DNA of 63,445 bases, filler included, from Collodictyon triciliatum (taxonomy: Eukaryota), in the NCBI GenBank assembly GCA_043381765.1. It is 4 parts of 4 records of this genome, joined end to end, with 100 filler letters (N's around TTAATTAATTAA, not from the genome) between each part and the next. Parts side by side here need not be neighbours in the genome. Positions count along the whole stretch, not along the records: positions 33,887 to 51,940 come from JBHJMP010001407.1; 3 more parts are not named here. One strand, written 5' to 3'. Positions 15,566 through 52,040 of the stretch are shown here, one piece after another. How positions within the stretch are numbered: the first letter of the stretch is position 1; every line of letters starts with the position of its first letter. Both the position numbers and the translations under genes were made by a program. The notes below the pieces were generated by a model. That model had not been told where the DNA came from. It worked only from the letters and a program-made list of their open reading frames with translations, and did not search any database.

Positions 15566-15665
15566 NNNNNNNNNNNNNNNNNNNNNNNNNNNNNNNNNNN
15601 NNNNNNNNNTTAATTAATTAANNNNNNNNNNNNNNNNNNNNNNNNNNNNNNNNNNNNNNNNNNNN
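15566..15665. other. Artificial scaffold linker (N44-TTAATTAATTAA-N44)
   Basis: A 12-mer with stops in all six frames sits at 15610-15621 between two 44-N runs. The identical structure recurs twice more. Confidence 0.97.
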
Positions 15666-19400: not shown

Positions 19401-21206
19401 CCTGTGGTCATAGCCATATAACCTCATAGGAATAGGCTGGAGCCTATACTCTCCAAAGATAAGGTCGTCTTGTTCAAACCGAATAAAATGGTTGACATCA
19501 GGAAAAGATATACGAAGAGCTCCATCATCGGGGTAATATGAAACTTTAATGCGGTATTGGGACAGGGATTGTTCAAGGGTTTTTGCATTGGTATATGTTG
19601 GAATCACATTATCTAAAAAGCATGTTATGGGAAAAGTTGGTATCACTGTAAACACATGGTCGTCAATCGGAATATCTCTTGCTTCTACATGGTCGTCACG
19701 GTCTGAGTCTGATGCAAATATCGCAAAGAGAAAATTAAACGTCTTTGACGGATATAATTCTTTGAGTGATGGGATGTTCGTCCTCAGATAAGTAATTAGT
19801 TTGGGCAAACTGGACTGGAAATGGCTAGGATGCAGATATGGTAAGATTATGGCAGTTGTGCTTCCTAACTTTGGTATATCTACTGCTTGGCTTTTTTGTG
19901 CGTCTGGCTTCTCTTGATGACCTTTTGATGATGACAATGGTGACCCTGGCTCGCACTTATACCCATTTTTCTGGAGAATAGAGGCAGAGTCTCTATATTG
20001 ATCAAGTAAGGTAATTGAACCCTACATACATACGATTGGATCGGTTAATCAGATTATTTTTTTTTAAAAAAAAACTTTTCATGAAGTTCTAAGTTTCAGT
20101 ATGATTTTTATGAATCGAATAAAGGAAAAAAAAAAGTTTCAGTATGATTTTCCTCAGATGCGACAATTATACACATATATAAAATGTTAAGATAGACTAT
20201 ATCAAATTTATACTTTAACATTTTTTTTGGAATTATACTTCTTTTGGCATATATAATAGATAAACAAATAAAAAGCTTAAAATTTACTTTTTCCTGCATA
20301 TAGAATAATATATGATAAAAAAAACATAGTCTTGAGACCACATATATATTCAACACTATCGTATATGTATAGAAGATGGAGCTTTTAAAAAAAACCTTGA
20401 GAGAGGGATAATCCCTTTCGATGAATGGTATCGTTTCGGTTGAGGGGGTCGAATGAAGAAATATAATCTCTTTTTCGGATAGTTGAAGAAAACAGCTAGG
20501 CTCTCTGACAATCTCAGATTGGTAGAGATAATCTGCAAACATTTCAGGTAGGGAAAATTTCGTAGTAACATGCAATAGATATCCTGGGTGGCATTCAACA
20601 ATTATCTGCATAACGTGTGTATGATTAGACTGATATGAAAAATGGCAGTAAAAAAGTAAATAAATAAATGAATATTTTGTGTTCTAGGCAAATTTTCATA
20701 GGAAGATAGGGGAAAATGAAGTTCTTTGGTACTATATTTATCTTTGCCGTTAGATAAATATGTATTATCATAAAAAATTGTCCAATATCCGGTTATGTTA
20801 AAAAAAATTAAACTATTTGGTTTCATTTTTAAAGTATATCGAGAGGAAAATAAACAAATAAACAAACTAAAAAAGAAGTAAAATATATTTAGTAATATTA
20901 AATAACAGCAACACTAATAGCGATAACGTACTATTTCATTTTATCTTTTGAATAAATTGCATATTAGATCGAAAAACTTACAACTTCGTCCCCAAAGTTA
21001 AGAGTCCTCATGCAAAAGTAGTTGACAAAACGACGAAAATTATACGGAACTATCTTAATCACATCTCTCGAATGATCCAAACATATCTCTGATATGTCGA
21101 GGCAGATTTCATTGGAGCTAGATATCGCCTTATAGATGGTGTCTTTTGTATGCTTGCCCTTGGGAACACCTTTTAGCCGCACATAATACAATTCACTTTT
21201 CTCCAT
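16486..21206 (-). CDS. Microbial-type PARG (TIGR02452/DUF2263 macrodomain) with six C-terminal PBZ-like zinc fingers; about 4 exons
   Basis: PARG motifs: [47 protein letters not shown] and [15 protein letters not shown] phase-0 intron (17975-17470) joins ...ATFFEK to IFIVILNK..., completing the macrodomain. The last exon has six C-x-C-x-H-x3-[FYH]-x-H units. Upstream exons (~21206-20986, ~20605-20397, and the acceptor at 20021) are inferred. Confidence 0.8.
17622..17866. repeat. (AGATAG)n hexamer microsatellite in the last PARG intron
   Basis: Tandem array read directly from the sequence. Confidence 0.95.
20091..20151 (+). mobile_element. Very short retroposed insertion, family B copy 2 (25 nt, 18-bp TSD)
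   Basis: AAGTTTCAGTATGATTTT occurs at 20091-20108 and 20134-20151, flanking TATGAATCGAATAAAGG(A)8. Confidence 0.82.
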
Positions 21207-33453: not shown

Positions 33454-33786
33454 GTGGTGTTTTCAAACAAGGAAAAGAGAGCATACCCCAAACTGCAGTA
33501 TTCGATAGAAGTTCTCTCGGAATTAGCATGAAATTCTTTTCTTTTCTATCCTTTTCTCTTTCTTTTTCTTTTTCTTTTCTCTTTCTTTTTCTTTTTCTTT
33601 TTCTTTTTCTTTTTCTTTTTCTTTTTCTTTTTCTTTTTCTTTTTCTTTTTCTTTTTCTTTTTCTTTTTCTTTTTCTTTTCCTCTTTATCTCTCTTTTTTA
33701 TCTCTCTTTTTTATCTCTCTTTTTTATCTCTCTTTTTTATCTCTCTTTTTTATCTCTCTTTTTTATCTCTCTTTTTTATCTCTCTT

Positions 33787-33886
33787 NNNNNNNNNNNNNN
33801 NNNNNNNNNNNNNNNNNNNNNNNNNNNNNNTTAATTAATTAANNNNNNNNNNNNNNNNNNNNNNNNNNNNNNNNNNNNNNNNNNNN
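33787..33886. other. Artificial scaffold linker (N44-TTAATTAATTAA-N44)
   Basis: The 12-mer is at 33831-33842. Confidence 0.97.
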
Positions 33887-34276
33887 AAAATAAGAAAAAA
33901 GAAAATAAGAAAAAAGAAAAAAAGAAAAAAGAAAAAAAGAAAAAGAAAAAAGAAAAAAAAGAAAAAAAAAGAAAAAAGAAAAAAGAAAAAGAAAAAGAAA
34001 AAAGAAAAAGAAAAAAGAAAAAGAAAAAGAAAAAGAAAAAAGAAAAAATGAAAAGAAAAAGAAAAGAAAAAGATCCAAAATTCTGGATTCAAAAAAGAAA
34101 AAAGAAAAAAGAAAAAAAGTTCACTCAACTGTACCCAACCTTCCACCACACAGATCCAACCGCTCATCAAGTCAGAAAGCAAGCCGAAACATCAGAAGAG
34201 AGCGCAGACCCGGCCTTCCGAGCCGTTCCGATCGCCGTCTTACGATCTCCTTCTCTCCAGCCAAGGATCATAGAAG

Positions 34277-37200
34277 ATGACCGAAACCTTCTTCACTCCG
34301 CTGGCCTCGTCTCGACCTGTGCGGACTCTGCAGCTAAGCAGCCAGCATTTATCCATGGTTCCAGCCGATATCATCACCATGAGCGAGCTGCAGGAACTCA
34401 ACATGAGCGACAATCCGCTGGGCAGACACATCCACGATGTTGTTCAAGACCTTCCTACACATATCTGCGTCCTGCAACTCGACCGTGCAGGCATCTCACA
34501 GATTCCAGAGAAGCTTCCCCGCAAGCTCACCAGCCTCAGTCGCCTTTCCATAGCTCACAACAAATTAACAGAACTGCCACATTCGCTGTCCATATGTGTT
34601 GGTCTGCAGATGCTTGACGCATCACACAATCTAATATCCACACTACCAATCGAATTTGCCTCTCTTTCTGCATTGACGGCCTTGCAGCTCACGCACAACC
34701 GCTTCAGCCGCAGGGCGGCTCTCATCCTCGATGCCATCTACACGAATCCACGCATTCTCAGCCTGGCTCATATATGCAAACCTACAAACACTGTATCTCC
34801 ATTTTCGACGGGGTCCGGCTCCACTTCCAACCTGGCAAACCTTGTAGAGTTTACTACCTTGATTAGTGAGTCTGTTGATATCAGTCTGGATGTAATATCC
34901 CCTTCAGCTGCTGCTCCCACAATTCCGGTTGCTGATGATACGTCTAACGATGAGCCCTGGGAAATTCTTCTTTCCTCGATAATCTGCCGTCTTCCAGCAT
35001 TGCACACACTTGACTTGGGTAGAATGTCTCTGAGTTCAGTGCCTGCCGGGCTTATCAACCTTGTATACTTGACCCGTCTATCACTAAATTCCAATCAAAT
35101 CCAGACGTTACCAATAGTCCTCACCAGCATGTCAACTCTCCGCACGTTGGATTTGCGTGAAAATCCCATCCAGTCGCTCCTCGCTATCGCTGGTCGCCTG
35201 CCTCACCTTCGCACACTTCTGTTTGATGTAGACAGCCTTTCTCAGGAGCATGAAAAGTTTCTCTTGCAGCGTATACAATGGCCCAGACAGTCTCTCAATC
35301 TAAATCCAGTTGCCATGGGCACTCTTCCACAGACTCATTCGTCTACAGCAACATCAGGAGTGTCTTCTCTTTTGAAATCGGCCCTCTCTTATCGCGGATT
35401 ACCATCGAATATGTCATCACAATCCTTGTTACCCACCCCAGCACAGTTATGCACTAGTGCCGATGGAGGTATTGCAAAAAGTACGAATGTCTTAAAATCC
35501 GTCCCAGCTCAAATTATACAGTTCCAGTGGCTTAGAACCTGTGACCTTTCTGGAAATAGCCTTTCGTCCCTCCCAGAAAAGCTTACTCTATGCAGTCGGA
35601 TTAGACGTCTGATATTATCTGGCAACTGTTTCAGTTGCATTCCACCAATTGTTACCCAATTCAAAAAGCTGCAGCTTTTGATGTTAGATTCTAATCAAAT
35701 TGATTCTTTGCCAGACTTCTCTTCAGATTTGACAACCCTAACGACTTTCGATCTTCGGGGGAATCCTTTGCCTCCCGATGTTCTTATTGTCTTCAGCATA
35801 TATGACTTTACTAATGGTCGTCTTGATTTATCTAAAAAAAACCTTACGTATATCCCCGATGTCGTACACAACCTGCCAAAGCTTCGCGTCTTGGACTTGT
35901 CTCACAACCTATTCTCTTGTATTCCTGATACAATCGGACTGGTGACCACTCTCATGAGCCTCGACCTTTCGTATAATAAACTGTCGACACTTCCCTCGAC
36001 GATGGCCGAGCTGAGTCGACTCACTAATCTCCGTTTGGACAACAATCGATTCAGCATATACCAGAGGGATTCGTCTCTTGTCTATGCAGATGACTACAAT
36101 GCCCCATATTTCGGGGACGTTTCATCTCGTCCAAATTGTAGGTCATCAATCGCTGCACAAAATGGTGATTGGAACAAAGGAGGTCAGAGACGTACAAACC
36201 CCTACTCGAGAGGTTCTCGAAGGTCAATCATCGACTTAGGAGATGAAAATATTGATTCCGTGCAACTATGTACTTACTTTTATATATGAAAAAAAAAGTA
36301 AAGTAAAAGAAAAGTAAAAGAAAAGATAATAAAAAATATGTCATCTAACGCGATTATTATTCAAAATAAAATATGACATTCTCATGTTGTTTTATCCATC
36401 TAAATAATTATTTCGCCAGGTCTTCCACCGGAATTATGTGAATTAAAAAATTGCGAAATCAGCTTGCTAGGAAACATGAAAATCCCTTCAAAACTACTAC
36501 AAAAATTCCCAGAGTTTATACAAAGTTCCAAATTATCGCCCCTTGTAAAATCGTTGAAAATCCTTCGTATCTTACGTATGATACCCTCTCATGATACAGT
36601 TCTAGCGTATAATTACGAGCAATACGCCTGCAAAAAACTATCACTAACCCTGAAAGAATCTGGTTCGCACGAGAGAACATCACTCATATCAGCGGACATT
36701 ATTAAGCTTGCTGTAGAGGCAGATGCACTTGACTTACTTGGAGACTCGAGAGTTCAAGAATCCATCAATCAAACGTGGACTAACCGGGCCAGTTTGCGTC
36801 GCTACTTGATGGAAAAAGAGGGCAAAGTGTCGTGGTTTGAAAATGGAATCTGGAAGGGTATCGCATTTTGGGCGGCTGCAATACATCATGAAACTCCAAA
36901 GTTTATGGCATCTCCTGGGGCCAAATTTTACTTTTCTGCGCTTGTATACGCTCTTTATTTAACCATTATCACTTTCTACCTCGTACAACAAAATTCGACT
37001 TATGAAACACCAACATACTTTTTCACCAGCACAATACGGAATTCTGTGGATCCATCTAATTTCATGCAAGACAGCGTGCCAGGAGACACAAACTTCTGGG
37101 GGTATCTTAGTTCGACTTTCGTGCCATTTATAGTCAAGGGCCCAGACAAAATATACGATCCTACAGACCCTAGAAGTAAAGAAATTCTTGCCTCCTACTT

Positions 37201-40200
37201 TCGTGTCGTGGGCCCTGTTCGACTTCGACAGCTTCGATCAAAATTGAGAGATTGCTCGTCTCTATCCCCTGATAGAAAACTGGATAAGAATCATCCATTA
37301 TCGAAGGGACTTTGTGTCAGACCTTTCACGATTTACGAGGCTGATAAATCTCCATACGGACCCGATGATGTTTTCCGATGGAAAAGCATTCACGAGTTGG
37401 GCTCATATGATGTTTTTGGTCAATTAAGTAATTGGTATGATGGAAGTGGATACGTCCACCACTTAAGTCACAATTATACCGAAATTATGAATGAAATCCA
37501 ATATCTCCAAGACAATAACTGGATTGACTTGCAAACGCGAGCTGTTTTTATTGAATTCATGACAGCAAATGACAATGCCGATATATTGACTTTTGGCAGA
37601 ATTCTTTTTGAAATCCCAGCGACAGGTTCTATACTGTATAAAGCGAAATACTTTACTGTCACAAAATCTGCCCTAGATATTCAGTGGGACTCATCTGTCC
37701 TCCTGTTTGCTTTCTTATTTCTTTACTCGGTGGGGCTAGTTTTCCACGAGTATCGACAGATGGTCAGAATGAGGAAGCAGTACTTCAGGGATGTTTGGAA
37801 TATAATGGATATCATCTTGATTTGTTTGTTGTGGTCTGCATTCGGATTGACAGTTCTCATCATGAACACAAATGTTGACCCATTTTCTGAATATGATACA
37901 GAGATATTTAAGGATTTCCAAAAAATTACCTTCTCCTTGGAGAAACAGAAGCAAGTAATGACTTTTTTGATGCTATGTTCATGGATTCGACTGTTGTACT
38001 TTTTCGGCGTCCACTCATCTTTCGGTCCGATGCAGATTGCTGTTGGTGCGATGACAGTGGACATGGCAAAATTTTTGCTTCTATTAGCTATATTTTTGGT
38101 AGCGTTTTCGTCCGCTTTCTACGCTGTGTTTGGGTCGGTATTAGCTAATTACTCAACAATCCGACTCATTGGTTATAGCTTAGGACAGGCTCTGTTTACT
38201 TCGTTTGACTTTGACAGCCTAAACGAAGCTGACCCATTCCTTGGTCCCATTCTACTATTTGCATTCATGCTCATCTGTGGTATTTTGCTCCTGAATTACT
38301 TGATTGCAATCCTGAGTGGGACATATGACACTATTCGCCGAAATTCTGTGCGCGAGTACAAAAAGATATTTGCGAAAACTGTTGTCACATCGCAAGAATC
38401 ACCCTGGCCACCACCGCTCAATCTGATATGGCCTGTTATCGGCATATTGATACCATTTTGGACGAAATTGAGACCTTTAATCAGAAAGCTCAAGTTTTAC
38501 TTGATTTACAGCGGAACAAGTCGAATGTTCATATGGCCTTTCCTCTGGGATGACTTGCTTCTAGAAAACCAAGTGAATGGGAGTCGATTTTATCCGAACA
38601 TATTTATGGTTCAGGACTTCGACGTGGTGAACGGGCTTTTTCTTACTATCTGGATTGACTACTTGATCGTAATGTTATCATGGTTACTAGCTGTTATTTT
38701 CAAGATTGTACTATACATCCCTGAAGTAGTCATGCGGAGATGGCGTGCATATAGCAGAGGTCGAACAGGGTTCCAAAAAACTTATCATCAAGGCATATTT
38801 GGCCAAATGACTCGTGATTTTAGTAAGTATGCCTCGTATGAGATGTCCAGTCTCGCTGATGGAGCATCTCCAAGTGACATAATACTGAAAGGAGGGTCTG
38901 CACCATCACCAAGACGAGAAGAGCCTAAACGCGTTGGCGCAAAACAGCAAAAATTATTCTCACTGTCTAAAAGTGGCTCCAACCTATGGGGGGAGGCTAC
39001 TCCAGTCCCGTTTGACGTCTACATATATGTGCACTGTGTCTCTGTTCGCTGCCTCTGGGTCATCACCATGCCTGTCTGGTGTCTTTTGTATTTCTTCAGG
39101 CACATAATTTGGGAACTTAAGGTAACTTTACGCAATAGAAACATCTCTCCACAGAATATACTCGCATTGTCCGTTTCTTTCTTTCTTTCTTTCTTTCTTT
39201 AGTATTTGCAGCGCTCTGCACCATCGATGAGACCATATGAATTTGTACTAATTTGTCATGTTTATTTAACCTTTTCCAAATTATTGCCATGGACAAATGA
39301 CTGGCGCGAATCAGAATCAAAACAGTAGGTTTTTTTTAAAACTTTTTCTCCCTTACATCAAAGCACACCATGATGTTTAAAATTTATGAAAACAAAAAGA
39401 ATCGTCATATGAAATACATAATCCCCGTTGGTTTCCTTAAAAGAGGAGAGAAAAAAGAAAAAGAAAAACGACGTAAGCATTGTCCCACACTTCACCACCA
39501 TTGTCTTAACAATATACATAATTTTACAAGGGTGCACCAACATCTTGTCGAAGGACTCGAAAGCTGATGTAGTGTACTCCAAAGATTTCCTGGTGGTGAC
39601 GAACAAATCACAGTCTCAGTTCACAAACGTATCGTGCATCCTTGCAGCAGACCCTTGGGAACCGAGTCTAGGTGTGTCGTACTTTGAAGTGGAAGTTTTG
39701 TTCCCTGGGTCCATTTCCATCGGGTTGATCCGAAAAGGAGACTCCAACATCCATGTCTTGGGCGACACTCCCGGCTCGATTGGACTCCGAGCCGAGGATG
39801 GTCACTTGGTCAGCCCTCACTTTGGCTCACATCAGATTTGCTTGCCATGGTCCAGGGTGGGTAGCATAGTTGGGTGTGGAGTGGACTTTGGACGCAAGGC
39901 TGTATTTTTCACATACAATGGGTGTCTACTGCCAAACGGAGTCACATGGGCGTATGAAGATCCTGTCTTCCCAGCAGTCCAGCTAAGCGAATATGCGGCG
40001 TCTGTGCGTGTAAACTTTGGAACAAGTCCCTTTCACGCCATGCATCCGTCATTCTCGATTGACCGTGCAAACAAGTTTGAAAAGTCCAAGTGGGATTATC
40101 TGCAAGTAACGCCCGATGGCTCTGCGGTTTCGTATCAGAAGGAAGGGACTGAAAGAGAGGCCTTAAGCGAGCTATGCCTTCTTCTGGCGCACAAAGGGTT

Positions 40201-41987
40201 CAAATTTCAACCCGAGCAGATCTCTTATTACGAGGTTGAACTCCTCCACTCGTCAAAGTATGGCGAGATAACTATGGGATTAGCACACTCTGATATACCG
40301 AGGTCTGGAGAGCTTGGCATCACAGCTGACTCCATTGGAATATCATACCTACCTGAGGCCGACTTCTTTGTTGTCCGATCGAGTTTGGCAGGGTAATTGA
40401 ACTGGATAATCTTTTTGACACACATACACACATACACACATACGTACATATTGCTTGAGTGTAGCCTGTCATTTTTGGACCGCCTCTCTGCTGAATTGCA
40501 GTTAAAGAGCTCGTCATTGAATCTTACATCACTTCTCCCCCTTAATACATCTCTCTCACTCTTACACTTGCCTCCATTTACGAATATAGTATTATATTCA
40601 TACATACAATAATAGAAACAAAATAAATAAACGCAGATACGAGGAGTACACATACCGAGTCGAAACTCTCGATCCCAACAAATCCATTATTATGGGATGT
40701 GGTGTTGACTTCAAGACCGACGTCATCTTTTTCACGGTGAACGGCCATCTTGTGCACGCAGCCACGTACGGGTCGCTGTACAATCGCCCCATTTTCTTCC
40801 CGGGCGTGATACTGGACGCCTTCGGACAGCTCCTCCGAGCTTCATGGAGATTGGATGTGGAGCCCGCCATTGTGGAGGGTGTGCGGTCGACACAGCAAAA
40901 GCTTGTGGGCAAATCCACAGAAGACCGAGACGGGGCGGCTGGCAAGAAGGGATACCACGCGGTCGACAAAGCAGGACGCCGAACGCCCACCGCGGGCCGA
41001 GTGCAGCAGAGCGGAACAGACGACATCACAGACGACGACGAGGATGAGGACGGCGATGATGACGGACCAGCTGTTGGGGACCGGCGGCACCGAATCAACG
41101 CGCCGTCCGACAAGAGGGCAGGACAGCATGCGTCTGTGCCCAACCTGAGAGACCGCGGCGAAGCGCCGACAGACAGCAGCGCAGGCACCGGCACCGGCAT
41201 AGCTGCAGATGCAGACCAGAATCCCACACTCCGCCTTCTGACGCGCCAAGGCCGCTCCGCAGACGCACCCGTCCTCGGTCTGTCTCCGCCCGGCCCACTC
41301 GCAGGGGGCGACCACGCGTCGGTGGCTGCGGCAGGTGTCGGCCTGGCAAGCCCGGCAAGTCTTGGACGCAGCGCCGGGGAAAGCATCGCCGGCGGGTCGC
41401 TGCTGCCGGGCAGTGCCGATGCCGGGTCGGCCGGTGCGCGCGGCAAGGCTGGGCGGCTGCTCTACGCGGCGTCTGTGCTGAGCATCAAGGGCAAGCAGGC
41501 CTCGAGCCGCGGGCAGATTGTAGTCCCAGTGGCCCAGCCGGCATCCTCTGCCGCGCCTCCGCTCACGCCCCACACGGCGGCTGCGGCGCTCTTTGCCTCG
41601 CAGTTTGCCGCCGGTTCAGACGCGTCGGACGCGGGCGAAAGCGCAGGCGGCAATGGACACGGGCAGCTGCTTCAGTCGTCGCCCAACGCAGGGCCCCATG
41701 CGAACGAGCAGGCGCAGCCCCCGTCTGAGAACGCGCGTCCCGTCCAGCTTGTGGACCGCGTCCACCGTGTGGTTGGAGAGCATCGGCGAAGGCAGTCGGC
41801 CATCCAGGGGACTTTCCGCTCAGACCGGCCGGCCATGGCCAGCGTCGTCTCTGCGGTCATGGCAGCGGCTGCAGAAATGCCGGCCAAGCAGCCTTCCCAG
41901 GTGAGTGCGCGCTTTGCGGAGGAAGAGGAGGAGGAGCAGCAGCAGCAGCATGCAGAGCCTCGAAGCACGCCACCGGCCGCGGACTAA
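34277..41987 (+). CDS. LRR + polycystin-2-like/TRP cation channel + two SPRY domains, ~2335 aa
   Basis: Exons 34277-36269, 36420-39121, 39212-39244, 39364-39430, 39531-40392 and 40637-41987 join in phase through GT-AG introns (7008 nt in total). Domains seen: many LxxLxLxxNxLxxLP repeats; polycystin TOP domain (VGPVRLRQLR..C, YDGSGY, LQDNNWIDLQTRAVFIEF..FEIPATG); S6 LLLNYLIAILSGTY; SPRY motifs YFEVEV..VGCGVDF..FFTYNG..VNFG and YYEVEL..MGCGVDF..FFTVNG. The start is tentative because it is near the scaffold edge. Confidence 0.8.
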
Positions 41988-42583
41988 TGCTGCTTGGCGC
42001 TCGGAATCATTCTGGCTGCTTCGCGTCTCTTTGCTGTGCTTTGCTCTGTTGTGCTGTGGAAGTGGGGTTCCTCTTCAAATGCGTTTCGCTTCTATGCAGC
42101 TGTTATCTCCCTATCACTTACCGGCTTTTCTTTTTCTTTTCCTTTTCTTTATTCTCTCTCTTTTTTTTCTTCATTTCTGTTCGCGCTCTCTAGCCCGCAG
42201 GCGAGTGCCATAAGCAACAAACAAACAAATAAACAAAGGAAAGTGAACCTGATAAATGAGACGGCTAACATGGGAAAGGAAGCAAGACAAAGAAAGCGTA
42301 TGAGAGCCACAGAAATTAATCTGTAGCTTATATGAACCCACCTAGTTTTAACTGGATACCGAGCGAAATAGCTGATGAAGGGGATAGACAAGAAGAAAGG
42401 GGGAAGAAAAAAAAGAGACAACAATGGAAAGGCAAGCGGGGTATTAGTAAAAACCCGAAAGATTTACAGACTTTACATAATATTTTTTTTTGTTTTTGTT
42501 TTATCAAAGAGCGCAGGAAGGGAACAATTTTTCAATTTACTTCATTATATTGCTCTCTTTCTCTTTTCCTCGCTGTTTCTGAA

Positions 42584-45500
42584 TTAAACGAGAGAATAGT
42601 CAATAGGCCAGGCAGTGAAGGAAGCAAGAGAAAGAATCGCCTCGCTATGGCCAGTCAAGCATGCGAGCTGATGCCCTGTCTCGGCCTGCCACACACCGAT
42701 TGTTTTGTCATAGCTCGCCGAAACCAAGTCCTGGATTGGTCCGGCTGGCAAAGCGTCTTGGTCTGATGGCTGCGATGGAGATTTTGGAGCGTATGGTAGC
42801 GTGATTGGGAGAAGGCAAGAGACATTCCATGTATGACCCTTGATGATGCGTAATTCTGTGGACGTGCGAAGGTCCCAGATGCGGATGGTTCTGTCTTCAC
42901 TACCGGAAGCTATGTAGTGGGTGCCTGGGAGGTGGCAACACGTATTCACAGCAAGAACATGGCCGCGCAAGCACAGTCCGGGCGAAGCTGTCCGTGGGTC
43001 CCAGAGGCGGACAGTCTTGTCTCCATAGAAACTTCCAGAAGCCGACAGGAGCGTGTCAGAATGCTGCTCAGGAGGCCGGCAGGATGCAAGCGCTTTGACA
43101 TGGCTTTTGTGCCCTGTCATGAGGCCTAATCCCTGCTGCGTTCGAGGGTCCCACAATCGGATTCCTGCATCGCTACCGTTGTACAGACTCCCACCCGATG
43201 CCAGCCACTCTCCATGCCCCGCTACATCAATAGAGCAGAGAGACAACACAGCAGCCTCGTGGCCCACAAGATTAGCTTCCGCTTGAAGCCCTGTAGTCGC
43301 TCCATTCGTCTCTGCACCTACAGGCTTAATAGCATCTCGCGGAGCTGACCAGAGTCGCACAGTGCGGTCGTATCCAGCCGTTGCAACCAACCCAGCAACC
43401 TGACAGACAGAGTACACAGCCTGTTGGTGTCCTGAAGCTTCCCACATTTCGCGTCTCTTATCTGGTTGCTGCTCTTTTTGATGAGGCGTTCTGCGCTCAA
43501 TCACGGGCCGCATTCGAACTCGACCATCGCTCCCGCTAGTGAGGATGCGCAAATCATCTGCATAATGCAAAGGGACCCGGCTGAGCACCTTTGTATTTAT
43601 TTGGTCTCTTACATCATCGCTTGTTTCTCGTGCTAGTCCCGTGATACCCTCTCTTTCTTGATGAACAACACCGGGCCGAAAAATGGATGTACACGTTATT
43701 CCTTGGTCATGTGCCTTGATTCTCTGGTTGGCCAGTGCCCACCCTTTGGGGTGACAAAGGTCCCATATGCTCAAATTTTTGTCTTCCCCTCCACTAATTA
43801 CATATGGTCTTGGATGGCGGTATGCTTTTTCTATGGGGCTCAATCCCTCTTCATCACCGTCATTATTATCATGGCCATCATCTCCTGCGTCATCCTGATC
43901 CCTCCCATTTTTTCGCTGTGATAGCCGTGGGCGTGTAGGAGCTTTTGGTGGGACAAAAGAACCGTCTGCTATCTGTAAGCTGACTTGAAGCTGCTCAACT
44001 GTGCTTTGTAGTTCATCAATCTCACGGAGAGCCTCCAAGTGCAAAGCATGATGACTTTCAGATTCTGCTGTCCTTGATTGGAGGTGGCGTCGAAGTTGTA
44101 TAACTTCCTCTTGTAAGCGTTGTTGCTGCATGCGAAGGGAATGTGCCTCGTCCAAACGGTCTCGAATAGCCATGTCCATAATATCTGTTCCGAAACTTTC
44201 TGAATGGACAAGGTTGCCAACTGATTCCGTTGCATTCGTAAGAGCCTCAAGACTCTCTTGGATTGATAGGTCAGCTGGATTGGCTTTCTCTAATTTTAAT
44301 AGACCCTCCAATCCATCGGTTAATCGCATTTGTTCATAACGCGTGAATCGGAACGGTTCTTCGGAAAGCATATCGGCAGTTAGTTTGGAAATCATTCTTC
44401 CATCTATGTGTTCTTGGCAGAGCACAGACAATATTCGTTGAGGTACATGCTGCTTCGACAGTTGCTCAGCCAATTGAGTTGCTGAAAGGGAGTGTAGATT
44501 GAATTGCTTGGTATGCACATTTTCCTTAATTTCACGGCTGTTGGACTTCGTCTTTGTAGAACTTGGCTTTGTATTCTGCATCGTTGGATTTGTGCGGGGG
44601 TTAGCACAATGACGGAAAGCTATACCACAGAGAAACTGTACCCAAGACGATAAAGATGGTTGCTGATTTGTTTTGAGGCTAAGCGAGTCATGAAGAAATT
44701 GGCGGAATTCCGGGTGAATAGATGATGCTCGTGGAATGGACAAAAGAGATATAGGTTGTGGGTTCGATGCACTAGAATTGGCCGACATGGATGGAGAACC
44801 AAGCAACATCTCACAAAACACTTGGGCCAAGGAGAAGCACAGGTGGCTTTGGATAGTTTCCTGATTAATGTGCGTAGATTCTGTTGGTGACTCAAGTTGT
44901 GAGCAGCCTTGGACAATACTAAATGGAAATAACCCCGAGTCAGAAAGTCTCCAGCAACCATCTGGGAATCGAAGAATCTTGGATGAGCTTAGGCGTTGGT
45001 AAGTTTTCCCAGGATTCTTTTTAAATTGCTCCAGCAAGGCTGATACGATGGGTATTAAAGTGTTGGCTGCGAGTGCGGGCGGCAATCCAATTTGGCTGTG
45101 CATGGGTGAATCAAGCCAGTCTCGCAAGGAGCCAAGAGGCGTAAAGGGTACCAAGGCGATGACCTTTGATATTTTATGGCCTTCAAGAGAGTCATCCGGA
45201 ATGATTCTAAAGCTGAGAAATGGGACGATATGAGATGGGCATTCCTTTGTGATGCTTTCCACGTCCGATATGGAAGAAAATCCTGTTTCAGGGCTCAGCT
45301 GAATGGAAAATGTCCTCAGCAATCCGGTAGCAGACTCTGGAGGCATTTGAGAAGTATCTTGGCTGTAATTACCTCCAATTCTTAATTCCTTGTAATTTGG
45401 CTCTATTCCGATGGTTGCAAGTAGCATAGGTGGATTTTTCTTTGCTCTGAAGGGAACAGCATGATTTTCATGCTTTGCTATCCGCTCTTTCAGTGCTTCC

Positions 45501-46156
45501 AGTTTACCTTTCCACATCTGGATTTCCTGTCTTCTGTTTGCCGAAAGGGACTTTAGCGATGTCTGTGTTTGTGAGCGAGGGGAGGATAACAGGTGACTTG
45601 CAAGGTCTGTGTCTGTGTCCAGAGCCAAGTAGAGCTGCTCCATGCCATTGTCTACTCCATAGACTCGAGCCAGTCGAAGTACAGAATCAAGCGCACTGTT
45701 TTCCTTGATTGTATGAATTGCCTCGTAGGCAGGCGCACACATGGCCAACAATGCCGCTGCACCATCGTTACGAGGGGCTATGGCATATAAAGAGAGGCTC
45801 ATTTGGCCTTGGTCTCTCGCCTTTGCACGGGCCCAGACCGGGTTGAGCGTCTCCGAGAGGCACTCGAGAAACAGATTGTCCAGCTGATCCTCTGGATACA
45901 GAAGCTGAATCCAGTCGTCCCCGTCTGAATGGAGGCCTTGCCATAGTTCAGCACACTTTTGCGCAACTCTCGAAGCAGCCGTCAGTGTGAGTGCGGTAGG
46001 GATGCAGGCTACTCCAATAGCGGTTGGTGCCTCTGGAACTTGGGCTGCGGCGCTTCCCAGGATCTTTGAAAGCAGCAGAAATCGGTTGCGGCAGCGAGTC
46101 TGCTTTGTCTGCTCACACAGGCCGATCGTGCGTCCAATCACCAATTCATGGCTCAT
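42584..46156 (-). CDS. Single-exon 1190-aa protein: helical N-terminal domain, pseudokinase, SAM, coiled coil, WD40 propeller
   Basis: Kinase-fold remnants: PFTPLGSLRDWL, YQRLSSSKILR, WRLSDSGL, FSLAQVFCEMLLG. SAM-like: LSATQLAEQL..LCQEHIDGRMISKLTADML. About 7 WD40 repeats, e.g. GHVLAVNTCCHLPGTHYIASGSEDRTIRIWD. Confidence 0.85.
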   Translation of the reverse strand: MSHELVIGRTIGLCEQTKQTRCRNRFLLLSKILGSAAAQVPEAPTAIGVACIPTALTLTAASRVAQKCAELWQGLHSDGDDWIQLLYPEDQLDNLFLECLSETLNPVWARAKARDQGQMSLSLYAIAPRNDGAAALLAMCAPAYEAIHTIKENSALDSVLRLARVYGVDNGMEQLYLALDTDTDLASHLLSSPRSQTQTSLKSLSANRRQEIQMWKGKLEALKERIAKHENHAVPFRAKKNPPMLLATIGIEPNYKELRIGGNYSQDTSQMPPESATGLLRTFSIQLSPETGFSSISDVESITKECPSHIVPFLSFRIIPDDSLEGHKISKVIALVPFTPLGSLRDWLDSPMHSQIGLPPALAANTLIPIVSALLEQFKKNPGKTYQRLSSSKILRFPDGCWRLSDSGLFPFSIVQGCSQLESPTESTHINQETIQSHLCFSLAQVFCEMLLGSPSMSANSSASNPQPISLLSIPRASSIHPEFRQFLHDSLSLKTNQQPSLSSWVQFLCGIAFRHCANPRTNPTMQNTKPSSTKTKSNSREIKENVHTKQFNLHSLSATQLAEQLSKQHVPQRILSVLCQEHIDGRMISKLTADMLSEEPFRFTRYEQMRLTDGLEGLLKLEKANPADLSIQESLEALTNATESVGNLVHSESFGTDIMDMAIRDRLDEAHSLRMQQQRLQEEVIQLRRHLQSRTAESESHHALHLEALREIDELQSTVEQLQVSLQIADGSFVPPKAPTRPRLSQRKNGRDQDDAGDDGHDNNDGDEEGLSPIEKAYRHPRPYVISGGEDKNLSIWDLCHPKGWALANQRIKAHDQGITCTSIFRPGVVHQEREGITGLARETSDDVRDQINTKVLSRVPLHYADDLRILTSGSDGRVRMRPVIERRTPHQKEQQPDKRREMWEASGHQQAVYSVCQVAGLVATAGYDRTVRLWSAPRDAIKPVGAETNGATTGLQAEANLVGHEAAVLSLCSIDVAGHGEWLASGGSLYNGSDAGIRLWDPRTQQGLGLMTGHKSHVKALASCRPPEQHSDTLLSASGSFYGDKTVRLWDPRTASPGLCLRGHVLAVNTCCHLPGTHYIASGSEDRTIRIWDLRTSTELRIIKGHTWNVSCLLPITLPYAPKSPSQPSDQDALPAGPIQDLVSASYDKTIGVWQAETGHQLACLTGHSEAILSLASFTAWPIDYSLV

Positions 46157-46636
46157 TTTGTTGTGCGAGGCTGCGAGTCTATTCGGCGGAATAAACCCAC
46201 CTTTTTCCTTGTTGTCTGTGTCTGCGCTTCCTCCTGTCCGCTTGTGCCTGTCGGTCGTTGCCTTTTTTTTTTTGATCCTTTTTCTTTTTCTTTTTGAATA
46301 CCCTTTTTTTTATTGATATTTTTTTTTCTTAAATCTCAATTTTGTTTTGGTTTAATCCAGAAAAAGGAATATTGTTATGGTATATTATATATGGTTGATA
46401 TACCACGGTATATATAATATTGTATCTGTCGCATCCCAATGCCTGTTCTCTGGCTTGACAGGCCAAAAGCTGCCACAAGATCGAGGCGCGTTGCGCAGGC
46501 ACATAGGGAACAACCTGCTCGGCCATTGTCGACGCGCCTCAGTGCAGCCCCTTCTGCTTGCTCGCCTCACGTTCGAAGCAAACGACCTTCGATATCACCT
46601 CACCAACAGATTGTCTGGCACTGTCATCGTTCTCTC

Positions 46637-46744
<108 letters not shown>

Positions 46745-46840
46745 TTTGACAGGTCTTTCGATGAGAAAAAAAAAAACTAAAAAAAATAATGTATAGATCA
46801 TAAAACACCAGCAAGCAGAGCACAGCCAGGAGCGGACCGG

Positions 46841-47963
46841 ATGGACCTGGCTGAGCTGGAGAACAGCGTGTTCACGGAGCGGCGGGAGGAGATTGTTGTG
46901 GGGCGGGAGATCGCGGAGGCGGCGGGGGCGGCGGGATGGCGGGAGCAGGGGCAGGAGCAGGAGCAGGTGTGGGGGTGGCACTGGGGCGAGTGGCAGGGCG
47001 TGCCGGTGACGGTGAAGGTGATCCCGTGGACGTGCTTCGACCGGCCGCACTGGTCGCAGCGGCGCGGGGAGCTGGCGGGGGTGTACGGGGCGGCGGGGGT
47101 GAGCGCAGAGCCGGATGCGGACGAGCTGGACGGGACGGGCAGCTACGCGGGGCTGCTGCAGAGGATCCGCCTGCTGCGCTCCCACCCGCACCCGGCCATC
47201 CTGACCGTCTACGGCGCTGCGCGGGGCGACGATGCCATCTACGTCCTCGTGGAGCACCCGCATCTGCCGCACGCGGGCACTGCCGCCCTGGCCATGCAGC
47301 CGGGCCTGCCTCCCTGTGCGCCGCACGCTGTGCTGCACTGGGCGCGCCACCTGGCCTCGGCCCTGGCCTTCCTGCAGGCCCACGCGGCCGTCCCGGGCTC
47401 GGCATACGGCGCCCTCTCGCCCCTGTCCGTGGCCACCGCCGCCGCCGCCAACGCCGCTGCCAAGCCCTGGGCAAAGCTGGACCCGCTGCCCCAAGCCGCG
47501 TTCCTCGCCTGCGCCCCGCTGCCCCACGAGCTGCCCCCCGTGCTCTGGCCCTTCTGCGCGCCCGAGCTGCTCGCCCGCCCCCCGCCACACTCCGCTCACC
47601 CCGCCGCCGCCGACACCTACGCCCTCGCCGCCCTTGTCCGCTGCCTCCTCGCCCCGCACCCGCGCCCGACCCCTGCCTTCCCACCCCTCATCTCCCCCAT
47701 CCCCGTCCCTGTCCCAGCGACCGCCGCCCCGCACCCGCGTCCCCCGCGCCCCTCCCTCCTCGACTACCTCGCAGCCGGCCCCTGGTCCTCCCCCTGGGTT
47801 CCCAACGACCGCCGCCTCGCACCCCTTGCAAGGTCCATCTCTGCCGCGCTCTCTCCGGACCCCGCCAGGAGGCCTGCCCTCTCCAACATCGCCGCAATCC
47901 TCAAGCAGGCCCTCCTTGTCCCGGAGTCGGTGTTTCTACTGGTTGGTCCTCTCTCTCTCTTTT

Positions 47964-48051
<88 letters not shown>

Positions 48052-51000
48052 TCATTCATTCTTTCATTCTTTCTTTCATTCTTTCTTTCATCGTCACATT
48101 CATGATGCTTTTCATTGAATGAACATCGCTGTGTGCAGGAGCATTCGCAAAGGATGGACACAGAGTACGGTTCTTCTCTCAGTCAACATGTCTCTCCACT
48201 TGGTAACCATCCGGCCTCTGGCTTACATGAGAAAAGTGTCCCATCGCCGGCAGATTTTGCCAAGGCTGAAGATTCTATGGGGCCACAGAAGCTCCCTCAA
48301 AACTTTTCTGATCAGATAGAATCACCGGCCCTCAGTAACTTCAAGGACGATTTGAAAGCTAGTTTTGCTCCGGTTGAAAAGGGGAATTTTATCGATGCTG
48401 CTGCCCTCCTTCTCTCCCTCGGCCAAGAACCTCTGGCTCCCAAATCGTCGATGGAACAATCACTCTCTCATGGTCATGATGTCAAAAAGGATGTAGGGAT
48501 TCGAAGTTTGACTGATTCCAGTGATATTTACCAACTTTACGATAGACTGTTGCACCATTATGGATCTGCTCCTCACAACGCTCCAATGGAATATTACGAG
48601 CCTTGTGTTGTTCTGATCCGAAAAATATTCCAAATCGATTCTACCTTTCTTCCTCTTTGGATAACCTTTCAACATATAAGTGATGACAAACCAAAACTTT
48701 TCCCTTATTCTGAGTTCAATCCGATGATGAAGCAACTATACCAATCCTCCAAGACTCTATCACCTGATAAACTCAGGTTCTGGGAATCATTTGTTGTGTC
48801 TCTATTCGAACAAAACAGGCTATTCATTTCCTCGTCGCCTGTCTCTATCCTCAAAGTTTTGGTATATTCTGCCTTTTATTTGTCATACGTAAAGAACACC
48901 CATCTAACTCTTTCTTCTCTGGTCGAAATCACATCGCAACAAGGAGGACAGCCTGAAATACCCGCACCATACTTTGTTTATGGGTATTATATACTAGCAG
49001 GGATGTTTGGGAAAGGAATGCTCTTAGAGCAAGGTGTTGGGTTTTTGGGGAAAGCTGCGATGATGGGGCACGCATACGCGCAGTACAAGTATGGCCAGTC
49101 ATACGAATCGGGCATTGGTGTTCGAAAAAGTATCTCAGAGGCCTTCCACTGGTACAAACTATCTGCAGAGAACGGTGATAAAAGCGGGCAGTTCAACCTG
49201 GCGAATCTGTACTACCAAGGTATAGGTTGTGCGGCAAACCATGTGGAGGCCAAAAAATGGATGAAGTCTTCTGCTGACCAAGGGCATCCCAACGCTATCG
49301 CCATGATGGAAAAACTCGGGGACTCACAAAAACAATATGGGAAACATGTGCATGTGCAAAATCGTGAAAAACAAACAGACCCCAATATTGCCGATCTTGT
49401 GTTACAATCCATGCAAAAAATTGCAGACAAAGAGGAGAGCCCACAGGCCATGGTGGCAGCTGGGAAAAACTATCTTTATGCTAGGGACATTGCACAAAGC
49501 AAACAGAAAGCGTTTGAAATATTCACCAAAGCAGCCGAAGCAGATTACATCCCAGCAAAATACTATGTTGCTTTTTGTCTAGAGTATGGACATGGAGTTG
49601 TTATGAACGTAAGGAAGGCTATCGATTTATACCGATTATGTGCTGATAAAGGTCACGATGGCTCTCAATATCGCCTTGCATACCATCTTTTCATCGGTTC
49701 GTACATCCAGTCAAATTATGCGGAATCTGCTCATTTCTTACAGCTCGCTGCCAGTCAGAATTTCAAACAGGCGCAATATCGGTTGGCTACATTTTATTTA
49801 TCTGGAACTGGTGTGGAAATGAACAAAGAGGAGGCTTTCTTTTGGATGAAAACTTGTGCGGATAAAGGTATCCTCGATGCCATCTGCGAGGTAGGGTTGT
49901 TCTACCTGAAAGGCACAGGAACAGAAGTCAATCAACCTCTTGGACTAAAATACCTCAAGACAGCCGCAAAGTATGGTCATGAGGAAGCTTTGGAGCTCTA
50001 TTCCCGCTATGAGGGAAAATTACAAAGCGGGTTTACTCCCAGCGCGCAGGCGTATCGCAAGGTAGTGGACCGAAAATTTGAAATCATAGAAGATGATAGC
50101 GACGAGGAAGATGGGAAAGATGAGTCAGTCCATAAAAGTGAAAATGCTACTGGAGATGAGGAATCTGACTTGAAAGAGTTTGGCGGTGAGAAGTCCAAGC
50201 CTGCCCGTTCTGAGAATGACAAAGAGGATCTTTTGAAGACAATGACCATTTTGCGAGAGCAGAAAATTGCGCCTGCCGAGGATGGAAGAGGGGCAAAGTC
50301 TGCCAGCTCTCCTTCGGTGCGTTCACAGGAAAGAGACGTCAATCCCATGACTTATGTACACTTGATACCAGGAGATGAGGAAACAAGAAACTACGAATTG
50401 GGTATGGAATATCTAGAAGCAACGACTGCTCACCAAAAGAACTATACAACTGCATACAACTACTTTTTACAAGCAGCAAAGAAAGGGCATGCACAGTCCA
50501 TGAGTATGGTAGGGAAAATGTGGAACGAAGGACTTGCAAGACCGATTGATGACGAGAAGGCTTTTAGTTGGTACACTGCTGCCACTGAGAAGGATGACAT
50601 GGAAGGGATATACATGCTTGGTAAATATTACTATACCGGCCTTGCCTCAGTTCGGTCTGCGGAGCGTTCTTTCTCTTTATTGAAGAAGGCAGCAGAAAGA
50701 AATCACGCAGGTGCACAGAGATATGTTGCATACCTTTATCAAGAGGGTTATGGCACCCAGCGCAGCAACCAGGAATACATCCGCTGGCTACGAAAGTCAT
50801 CGAGTAACGGGGACATGACTGCGACGTATCAGTTGGGTCGAGAAATGATTAGTGGCAAATGCACAGGCGTGAAGGATTTAGTGGAAGGATTTTCGCTGTT
50901 TGAAAAGGCTGCCAACGCAGGAAATCGGGTATCCATGCTTTACGTGGCCCAGTTATATGAATCTGGCTATGGCGTAGAGAAGGATATACAGCAAGCTAAA

Positions 51001-51081
51001 AAATACTATACGATGGCTGACCATGCCGGGTATTACAAGGCTAAAAAGGAGCTTGCCCGTTTAAAAGAACAAGGCTACTGA
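46841..51081 (+). CDS. TKL-like pseudokinase fused to Sel1-like repeats, 2 exons
   Basis: Exon 1 has kinase motifs GEWQGVPVTVKV, HPAILTVYG..IYVLVEH, WARHLASALAFL, FCAPELL, ADTYAL and DPARRP. Phase-0 donors at 47930 or 47942 match the phase-0 acceptor TGCAG|GAG at 48139, across a (CTTT)n intron. Exon 2 has roughly 14 Sel1 repeats, e.g. AQYKYGQSYESGIGVRKSISEAFHWYKLSAENG. Confidence 0.78.
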
Positions 51082-51843
51082 AGAATGGCTATGTGTTCTT
51101 TATTGCCTATTGAAGCGAAATCCCTGAAGGGCTCTAGGCATTCTGAAGTTTCCGATCCACACCCGGAACTTAGAACAATAAATGAATAAATAAATGATAA
51201 TCAAGCCAGCCCCACCATCGCATAAGGCGCCACGAAATAGGGACGACCAAATAAACTCCTCTAACATTATCTTTTTTGTGTATATATTGTTTGTTTGTTT
51301 TTTCGGTTGGCTTGGCTTGGCTTGGCTTGGCTTGGCTTGGCTTGGCTTGGCTTTGTTTTGTTTTGTTTTGTTGTGATGTAATGGTGCGTGGTGTTTGTTA
51401 TTTGATAATGAGGGCCGCACAATATGTTTATGCTAAATGAAATCGAGCGCTATCAGCAGACAGGTGGCAAAGAGCTTGACGAAGGAAAGGTAAGGAAAGG
51501 AAAAGAAAGGAAAGAAAAAATTAAAAGACAATTAAATGCAAGCACTTCCACATTCGAAACGTTGTTTGACAAAAAAGAAGAAAAAAGGAAGAGATAAAGA
51601 AGAAAAAAAAAGATAGTCGTGCTCATGTATAATCGCGAAAGTAAGGTTTCTCTTCAGGGAGCATGAGCGCGCAGTGGCTACTGAGATGGTGCAGTATCCC
51701 AATCGTTGTTGTGCATTGAAAGGGCAATTGCAGCATTTCTGTGATTGAAAATAGTGAGAATGATTGAAAATTGAAGTATTAGTTGTAATAAATGAATGAA
51801 GAAGCTGGGTGTGTGTGAAAAAAATGTATGATCGTTTATATTG

Positions 51844-51940
51844 TGAGTGAGTGAGTGAGTGAGTGAGTGAGTGAGTGAGTGAGTGAGTGAGTGAGTGAGT
51901 GAGTGAGTGAGTGAGTGAGTGAGTGAGTGAGTGAGTGAGT
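51844..51940. repeat. (GAGT)n microsatellite at the scaffold end
   Basis: Tandem array read directly from the sequence. Confidence 0.97.
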
Positions 51941-52040
51941 NNNNNNNNNNNNNNNNNNNNNNNNNNNNNNNNNNNNNNNNNNNNTTAATTAATTAANNNN
52001 NNNNNNNNNNNNNNNNNNNNNNNNNNNNNNNNNNNNNNNN
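51941..52040. other. Artificial scaffold linker (N44-TTAATTAATTAA-N44)
   Basis: The 12-mer is at 51985-51996. Confidence 0.97.

Follow-up and report, generated by a model that had tools for sequence, protein, structure and literature searches.

A probable single-chain leucine-rich-repeat, polycystin-like channel and tandem SPRY protein encoded by an expressed gene of Collodictyon triciliatum

Can a leucine-rich repeat (LRR) solenoid, a polycystin-type ion channel and a pair of SPRY domains be carried together on one protein chain? The question is raised by positions 34277-41987 (plus strand) of a 63,445-nucleotide (nt) stretch of DNA, here called the window, from the protist Collodictyon triciliatum (GCA_043381765.1). 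The gene-bearing part of the window, JBHJMP010001407.1, occupies positions 33,887 to 51,940. An initial sequence-only reading had joined several open reading frames (ORFs) at this locus into a giant fusion protein and proposed that it might be a ligand-gated cation channel. The gene is real and expressed. The evidence assembled here favors, at a probability of roughly 0.72, a single freshwater-protist gene with at least three introns, encoding about 2,300 amino acids (aa) and belonging to a conserved family of polycystin-2-like (TRPP-like) subunits of transient receptor potential (TRP) channels. Pfam matches, RNA joints, a PKD2-like fold and homologues together place LRRs, a PKD2-type channel with its TOP domain, RanBP9-like SPRY domains and a low-complexity tail in one product, much as had been proposed.

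Transcripts and the gene model

Four plus-strand ORFs make up the locus, namely A (34274-36289), B (36404-39202), C (39422-40396) and D (40590-41987). Pfam assigned LRR_8 (7.4e-40) and LRR_4 (5.6e-31) to the first, Polycystin_dom (1.7e-26), PKD_channel (2.3e-22) and Ion_trans (7.5e-13) to the second, SPRY to the third, and the second half of a further SPRY domain (SPRY positions 68-109, 1.7e-3) to the fourth. An in-frame stop lies immediately 5′ of the ATG at 34277, and a stop at 41985-41987 closes the last ORF.

Transcripts connect these frames at two places. The RNA evidence consists of contigs from three runs in two studies (two freshwater metatranscriptomes and a third run with a SMART-type oligo at a loose end), and most contigs aligned to the gene were at least 99% identical to it. 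The first joint, 36269/36420, removes an intron with a G+C content of 0.213 and was seen in one contig of run X3, whose two arms measure 28 and 123 nt and show no mismatch; homologue alignments continue through it. The second, 40392/40637, was seen in one contig of run X2, with arms of 51 and 154 nt. Both joints run directly from ORF to ORF, and a model using both keeps the frame, its sole stop being its end. At the 3′ end, RNA contigs tile 40636-42120 with gaps only at 40790-40816 and 40966-40969, and therefore the GC-rich tail and the stop are transcribed and no further intron occurs in the covered part.

The sequence-only reading had called for five junctions, two small exons and a product of about 2335 aa. 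Its central idea, that the ORFs belong to one in-phase gene coding for a single large protein, is upheld in part by the two GT..AG joints. The small exons are without RNA support, the other junctions were not borne out, and a minimal model of four exons gives 2,294 aa instead.

Two candidate splice features were set aside. A donor at 36137 was ruled out by an RNA contig that is unspliced there, the observed donor being 36270, and a run X1 joint at 41235/41761 (TT..CG) was taken as a contig artefact.

One metatranscriptome contig of run X2 differs from the window at 34364-34647, where 284 nt contain 11 mismatches as well as one insertion and one deletion of 1 nt each; a sister-run contig matches the window exactly in that interval. 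The same water body seems to contain either a close strain or a paralogue.

Domains of the predicted protein and its relatives

The first region of the protein is made of LRRs. Exon 1 holds 13 motifs of the LxxLxLxxNxL type in three blocks (approximately residues 20-150, 235-320 and 400-600), whose best relatives among solved structures are LRRD1 (1.9e-41), SHOC2 (about 1e-36) and Leptospira LRR proteins; LRRC8 is a weaker match (about 1e-18). The earlier claim that these repeats lack a signal peptide holds when judged, as it was, by hydropathy alone: the first hydrophobic segment occurs not before residue 832 (Kyte-Doolittle, 19-residue window, at least 1.4). Tandem repeats without a preceding membrane segment are the arrangement of cytosolic LRR proteins such as SHOC2 and LRRD1, and the complete ORFs of homologues likewise open directly with LRRs.

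The second region is the channel. Its best phmmer match was Polycystin-2 (2.4e-37 over S1-S6). An AlphaFold2 (AF2) model of the 900-aa exon-2 product, built from 40 aligned sequences, had a mean predicted local distance difference test score (pLDDT) of 79.5 and a predicted template-modelling score (pTM) of 0.71. The best Foldseek matches of this model were PKD2 chains (9dwq_A, 7.8e-23, TMt 0.82), and VIA superposed model residues 164-638 on human PKD2 (6t9n_A) with Z 32.9 and a root-mean-square deviation of 2.4 over 440 aligned residues. The model thus contains an S1-S6 pore module of the TRP type and, between S1 and S2, a mixed alpha/beta TOP domain (exon-2 model residues 198-420, pLDDT mostly above 85). 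Two cysteines of this domain, C278 and C298, are invariant in 40/40 aligned sequences and presumably form a disulfide, as in PKD2. The PKD2-type fold and TOP domain of the sequence-only reading therefore stand; its count of six transmembrane segments is incomplete, with three further helices following S6.

Flanking the pore are two elements that recall other TRP channels. An all-helical linker domain precedes S1 and is conserved across the subfamily, and an amphipathic helix follows S6. In VIA comparisons with TRPC6, TRPC5, TRPM3, TRPM7 and TRPV6, Z was 16.5-17.6 and the aligned stretch ran from model residues 1-26 to 662-684 (ends of ranges), so the match of the linker domain is one read from the alignment of the whole model rather than from that domain folded alone. 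The phmmer alignments to TRPV6 and TRPC4 reach query residues 671-689. An E/Q-Y-x-x-x-F-A pattern in the post-S6 helix is common to the subfamily and only loosely matches the canonical TRP box. On these comparisons of models, the pre-S1 domain and the post-S6 helix are likely counterparts of two group-1 TRP elements, the linker domain and the TRP helix, neither of which is known from solved PKD2 structures.

The third region comprises the SPRY domains and tail. SPRY1 matched RanBP9 (2.6e-8) and RanBP10 (4e-8) best, followed by SPRYD3 and the RyR SPRY2 domain (1.5e-4). Its AF2 model (pLDDT 68.8) forms the beta-sandwich of PF00622, with pLDDT 72-89 in blocks 4-15, and its best Foldseek match was the RanBP9 IUS-SPRY structure (1.3e-10, TMt 0.67). 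SPRY2, divided between two exons and only partly matched by Pfam, becomes clearer once spliced (model residues 1740-1917), matching SPRY1 of the relative P0007, which also has two SPRY stretches, at 1e-9. The proposal of two RanBP9-like SPRY domains is accordingly sustained, as is that of a low-complexity tail, the last 304 residues being 19% Ala, 11% Ser, 11% Gly and 9% Pro.

The strongest argument that these regions form one chain comes from relatives of the protein. An exhaustive phmmer search with the channel ORF against 1.84 billion representatives gave 4,053 matches at E≤1e-3. It was headed by P0005, P0007, P0001, P0008, P0009 and P0010 (5e-155 to 3e-103), P0011 (8e-67) and P0012 (3e-57), and after these eight subfamily representatives E drops to 1e-41. 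P0001 (1663 aa) and P0005 (1596 aa), found also by a word-index search with ORF B, are 34-36% identical transcriptome ORFs labelled complete, and by Pfam both carry LRR, Polycystin_dom, PKD_channel and SPRY. The same parts occur in P0007 and P0009, while P0008 has LRRs, the channel and a weak SPRY match (0.005), bringing to 5/8 the representatives with all three regions in one chain. Single BLAST alignments connect model residues 420-1916 to P0007, 390-1991 to P0001, 74-1930 to P0008 and 423-1725 to P0005; the first three span all three joins of the model and the last spans the first two. LRRs, pre-S1 domain, TOP channel, helix and SPRY of the model are collinear with these relatives. As far as sequence comparison reaches, the domain architecture is confirmed and conserved, and the layout recurs in other protists.

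At its C-terminal end (residues 1872-2096), the 2,106-aa P0008 also shows RasGEF_N (0.086) and RasGEF (0.067) matches, in canonical order, below threshold and cut by the protein end. It is possible that P0008, from another organism, fuses LRRs, channel, SPRY and RasGEF.

In a FastTree built from the channel core (midpoint-rooted, without support values), the window protein and its eight relatives fell into one group, the nearest neighbor of which was P0013, an ankyrin-repeat polycystin. Because of this neighbor and an ankyrin-bearing “Polycystin-2” of Diplonema, the LRR form looks less like a new principle than like a swap of the cytosolic repeat module among TOP-domain TRP channels of one protist clade.

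Further searches yielded little of this kind. Scans of metagenome contigs with the SPRY exon and with a four-sequence alignment found no relative, a word-index protein search restricted to 3687-5000 aa returned LRR giants and a PKD1-like protein, and the ESM Atlas gave generic polycystin clusters only. No description of an LRR-polycystin-SPRY layout was found in the full-text literature searched, which did not extend to supplementary domain tables, and none is mentioned in the matching passages of PMC12749960, PMC3194816 and a choanoflagellate TRP preprint. The sequence-only reading had not recognized the architecture but allowed for prior annotation in protists; automatic annotation in other databases may indeed exist. 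The architecture is not unique to this locus, being shared by a small conserved family.

Weak points, topology and competing explanations

Several observations count against the single-gene, TRPP-like reading. The contig starts only 390 nt 5′ of the ATG, which leaves the 5′ end unproven, so a 5′ exon may be missing. The short side of joint 36269/36420 is below the 31-nt alignment rule, and the joint comes from a single contig. No RNA contig covers 37700-39430 or crosses the channel-to-SPRY join, and enumeration of in-frame GT-AG paths across 39122-39553 gave 80 direct paths and 136 with one small exon, so that being “in phase” here has no evidential weight beyond chance. Three of the eight relatives lack SPRY by Pfam (P0010 and P0012 have LRRs and the channel, P0011 the channel only); all three are shorter sequences, perhaps truncated, perhaps genuinely without it. 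The selectivity filter reads F-T-S in place of the L-G-D of a TRPP-like channel. Lastly, the three extra helices after S6 (residues 666-700, 739-778 and 866-899) were modelled at a pLDDT of just 50-70, and each of the three is followed by a basic cluster, giving conflicting charge signals.

The channel-to-SPRY join can nevertheless be narrowed by other means. Both RNA-seen joints are direct, and therefore any small exon must fall within 39122-39553. The hydrophobic helix at 39017-39118 is conserved before SPRY in all full-length homologues, so coding must run to about 39118; the first donor 3′ of it is the phase-0 GTAACT directly after 39121. G+C is 0.345 in the interval as compared with 0.357 in the confirmed intron 40393-40636, and at 0.372 the candidate small exon 39212-39324 is not distinct from its surroundings. 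The linker from helix to SPRY is about 10-25 residues in homologues, and a single intron reaching the acceptor before 39554 gives a similarly short one. ORF C has no Met upstream of SPRY1. A single intron would then be the simplest solution, fitting composition and homologue linker length best and completing the four-exon model. Run X1 pieces at 39439-39468 are low-complexity 31-mers with 3 mismatches and were disregarded. For a splice without RNA cover, the case for fusion is made by the homologues, which carry LRR, channel and SPRY together.

Assuming this gene model, the subunits would assemble, by analogy, as a PKD2-like tetramer. Each chain would run from the LRR solenoid through the helical linker, S1, the extracytosolic TOP domain, S2-S6 and the TRP-like helix to two or three more membrane helices around a basic loop, the SPRY pair and a disordered tail. 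The solenoid would lie in the cytosol and act on the gate by way of the helical linker and the TRP-like helix, the route used by the ankyrin repeats of TRPC, TRPV and TRPN, and the SPRY pair could act outside the pore as a protein-docking module for regulators, anchoring or turnover machinery. Given FTS for LGD, ion selectivity would probably differ from that of PKD2, and other subunits may be needed for conduction.

One alternative concerns the side of the membrane on which the chain ends. A PKD2-like arrangement of S1-S6 would place the N-terminus and the post-S6 helix in the cytosol; were all three extra helices to span the membrane, the SPRY pair and tail would then be outside the cytosol, facing the exterior or an organelle lumen. 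Such a topology is unlikely, although it has some support: the helices are hydrophobic (17-29 apolar residues each), the loop after the second is strongly basic, as a cytosolic loop would be, and the first two are separated by a segment with an NGS sequon. Against it, the window protein and four homologues have basic residues after the third helix too. RanBP9-type SPRY domains, moreover, are known from cytosolic and nuclear complexes, and P0008 carries its weak RasGEF-type matches C-terminal to the SPRY region. These last two points make a cytosolic SPRY pair and C-terminus the considerably more probable arrangement.

A second alternative is that a cytosolic ligand gates the pore directly by binding to the LRRs, to the SPRY domains or to both, making the protein a single-chain receptor-channel, as had originally been suggested. 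Both are binding modules, and the LRRs, with no signal-like segment before them, lead to two elements, linker domain and TRP-like helix, whose counterparts in group-1 TRPs relay signals from the cytosol. However, no ligand, binding pocket or partner emerged from the sequence and model analysis, the closest LRR relatives (LRRD1, SHOC2 and LRRC8) are scaffolds and regulators rather than small-ligand receptors, the membrane side of the SPRY domains is ambiguous, and the filter is degenerate. Direct gating by a ligand is thus doubtful. A broader version of the idea, held to be a shade more doubtful still, is that the family is a separate old TRP branch in which a group-2 TOP domain and a group-1 linker and TRP helix were combined with LRR and SPRY sensors, the pore being opened by a cytosolic protein or a microbial product. 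If true, it would be a single-chain receptor-channel with a logic like that of those LRR immune receptors that end in a cation channel.

The filter itself suggests a third alternative, in which the protein is a non-conducting or auxiliary subunit, serving as a scaffold or as the odd member of a heteromer, like PKD1 with PKD2. LGD is the selectivity-filter motif of polycystins, and in ungapped alignment most other polycystins have it, while the subfamily has FG[D/E/N] or FAD. The Gly is kept in 7/8 relatives (one has Ala) and an Asp or Glu in 7/8 (one has Asn). The window protein has replaced both the Gly and the acidic residue, unlike nearly all its relatives, and so even ordinary cation or Ca2+ conduction is an assumption. 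Yet P0005 (FGN) also lacks the acidic residue, which shows that the position varies within the clade, and the remainder of the pore region (S5, pore helices, S6) shows good conservation and a confident fold. An auxiliary role is accordingly improbable.

Finally, it is very unlikely that the locus holds two adjacent genes, an LRR-channel gene stopping at 39200-39202 and a SPRY-SPRY-tail gene starting at 39200-39550 (e.g., at the ATG pair at 39370, spliced to 39531): the RNA gap over 37700-39430, an enumerated in-frame path (39364-39472 to 39531) that opens with Met codons and the continuation of ORF B to a stop 27 codons beyond the proposed donor would agree with this, but the five homologues with SPRY have it in the same chain right after the same conserved helix, two of them as complete transcript-derived ORFs, and the intergenic gap would be only about 170 nt of intron-like G+C.

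Surrounding sequence and comparison with known systems

Table 1. Positions of the gene's features in the window, with the assembly spacer that precedes its contig.
Feature	Position	Strand	Remarks
Assembly spacer (N run, TTAATTAATTAA, N run)	33787-33886		Gene-bearing contig begins at 33887
Exon 1	34277-36269	+	Start codon and about 664 aa, three LRR blocks; RNA contigs cover 34340-34835 and 36020-36269
Intron 1, LRR ORF to channel ORF	36270-36419	+	150 nt, GT..AG, phase 1; RNA joint 36269/36420
Last LRR and all-helical pre-S1 linker domain	36420-36907	+	Exon-2 residues 1-162; AF2 pLDDT mostly 85-97
Channel core	36914-38317	+	S1 36914-36994; TOP/polycystin domain 37013-37681; S2-S6 and pore helices 37691-38317
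Selectivity-filter position, F-T-S	38195-38203	+	Between predicted pore helices 580-591 and 597-603
Post-S6 amphipathic TRP-like helix	38321-38398	+	Exon-2 residues 634-659; AF2 helix
Three extra hydrophobic helices	38417-38521, 38636-38755, 39017-39118	+	Predicted from hydropathy and AF2; 17-29 apolar residues
Basic disordered loop	38756-39016	+	Between second and third extra helix; residues 775-864 with pLDDT <50
Channel-to-SPRY intron region	39122-39553	+	Simplest as a single intron GTAACT...GAAG, phase 0
Alternative for 39122-39553	Small exons 39212-39324 and 39444-39472, acceptor before 39531	+	Respectable splice sites
Exon with SPRY1 and first half of SPRY2	39554-40392	+	Pfam SPRY match 39677-40024, 3.8e-18
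Intron inside SPRY2	40393-40636	+	244 nt, GT..AG, phase 2; RNA joint 40392/40637
Last exon	40637-41987	+	Rest of SPRY2 (Pfam 40689-40817), acidic stretch, Ala/Ser/Gly/Pro-rich tail, stop

The window consists of separate contigs linked by three spacers, each an N run, TTAATTAATTAA and a second N run (12-mers at 15610-15621, 33831-33842 and 51985-51996), with stops in all frames. The three copies of this 12-mer, starting at 15610, 33831 and 51985, compare with 0.01 expected. Statements on synteny are valid only inside 33887 to about 51940. At 33500-34110, long (CTTTT)n, (TCTCTTTTTTA)n and (AAAAG)n microsatellites flank the spacer on both sides and give rise to spurious Phe/Leu- and Lys-rich ORFs on both strands.

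Within the same contig, a convergent open frame of 1,241 codons (42584-46309, minus strand) ends in a C-terminal WD40 propeller (WD40, 1.5e-31), preceded by a long N-terminal region without a Pfam family at E≤0.001. About 600 nt separate its stop from that of the channel gene. Further along, a 991-codon open frame (48106-51081, plus strand) carries many Sel1 repeats (6e-64). On another contig, an 806-codon open frame (17601-20021, minus strand) encodes a microbial-type poly(ADP-ribose) glycohydrolase catalytic domain (PARG_cat_microb, 5.2e-10). Rfam and tRNA scans of the window gave no matches.

The TRP channels are usually divided into two groups, group 1 having cytosolic repeat domains and a TRP helix and group 2 (TRPP and TRPML) an extracytosolic S1-S2 domain. 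The protist family appears to unite features of both, with LRRs replacing ankyrin repeats, and it bears on the ancestral TRP layout and on the exchangeability of cytosolic solenoids as gating or anchoring modules. Elsewhere, SPRY domains fused behind a pore distinguish the ryanodine receptors, and the presence of a RanBP9-type pair here suggests that the polycystin brings its own docking site for regulators or ubiquitin-ligase machinery. Until a current, a partner or a localization is shown, the finding will be of modest practical value.

Among known systems, PKD2 (TRPP2) and PKD2L1 share with the window protein the S1-S6 fold, the TOP domain between S1 and S2 and the two conserved TOP cysteines. 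Identity to PKD2 is only about 21%, the filter there is LGD rather than FTS, and the window protein adds an LRR solenoid, a pre-S1 domain, a TRP-like helix, extra helices and two SPRY domains. No EF-hand was among the Pfam matches at E≤0.01 in the four ORFs.

The group-1 TRPs (TRPC, TRPV and TRPM, along with TRPA and NOMPC) have what is likely the same succession of a cytosolic N-terminal solenoid, linker helices, S1-S6 and a post-S6 helix; their solenoids are built of ankyrin repeats or MHR in place of LRRs, and they lack the TOP domain. Closer in layout are the ankyrin-repeat polycystins P0013 and P0003 (“Polycystin-2 [Diplonema papillatum]”), in which a repeat domain likewise precedes Polycystin_dom and PKD_channel, and P0013 has the post-S6 pattern as well, as E-Y-x-x-L-F-A. 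Both differ in having ankyrin repeats instead of LRRs and no SPRY among their Pfam matches.

LRRC8, which forms VRAC, also combines a pore subunit and a cytosolic LRR domain in one chain, but with an unrelated pore fold, C-terminal LRRs and anion conduction. The ryanodine receptors similarly join a cation channel and SPRY domains, and the RyR SPRY2 domain matches SPRY1 in fold (Foldseek, 4.6e-8) as well as in sequence; they differ in channel family and size, and the SPRY domains of the window protein are C-terminal to the pore and nearer to RanBP9/10. RanBP9 and RanBP10 themselves, scaffolds of the CTLH/GID E3 ligase, give the best match to SPRY1 in sequence and fold, whereas in the window protein the SPRY domains occur in tandem, without LisH, CTLH or CRA among the Pfam matches, and are fused to a membrane channel.

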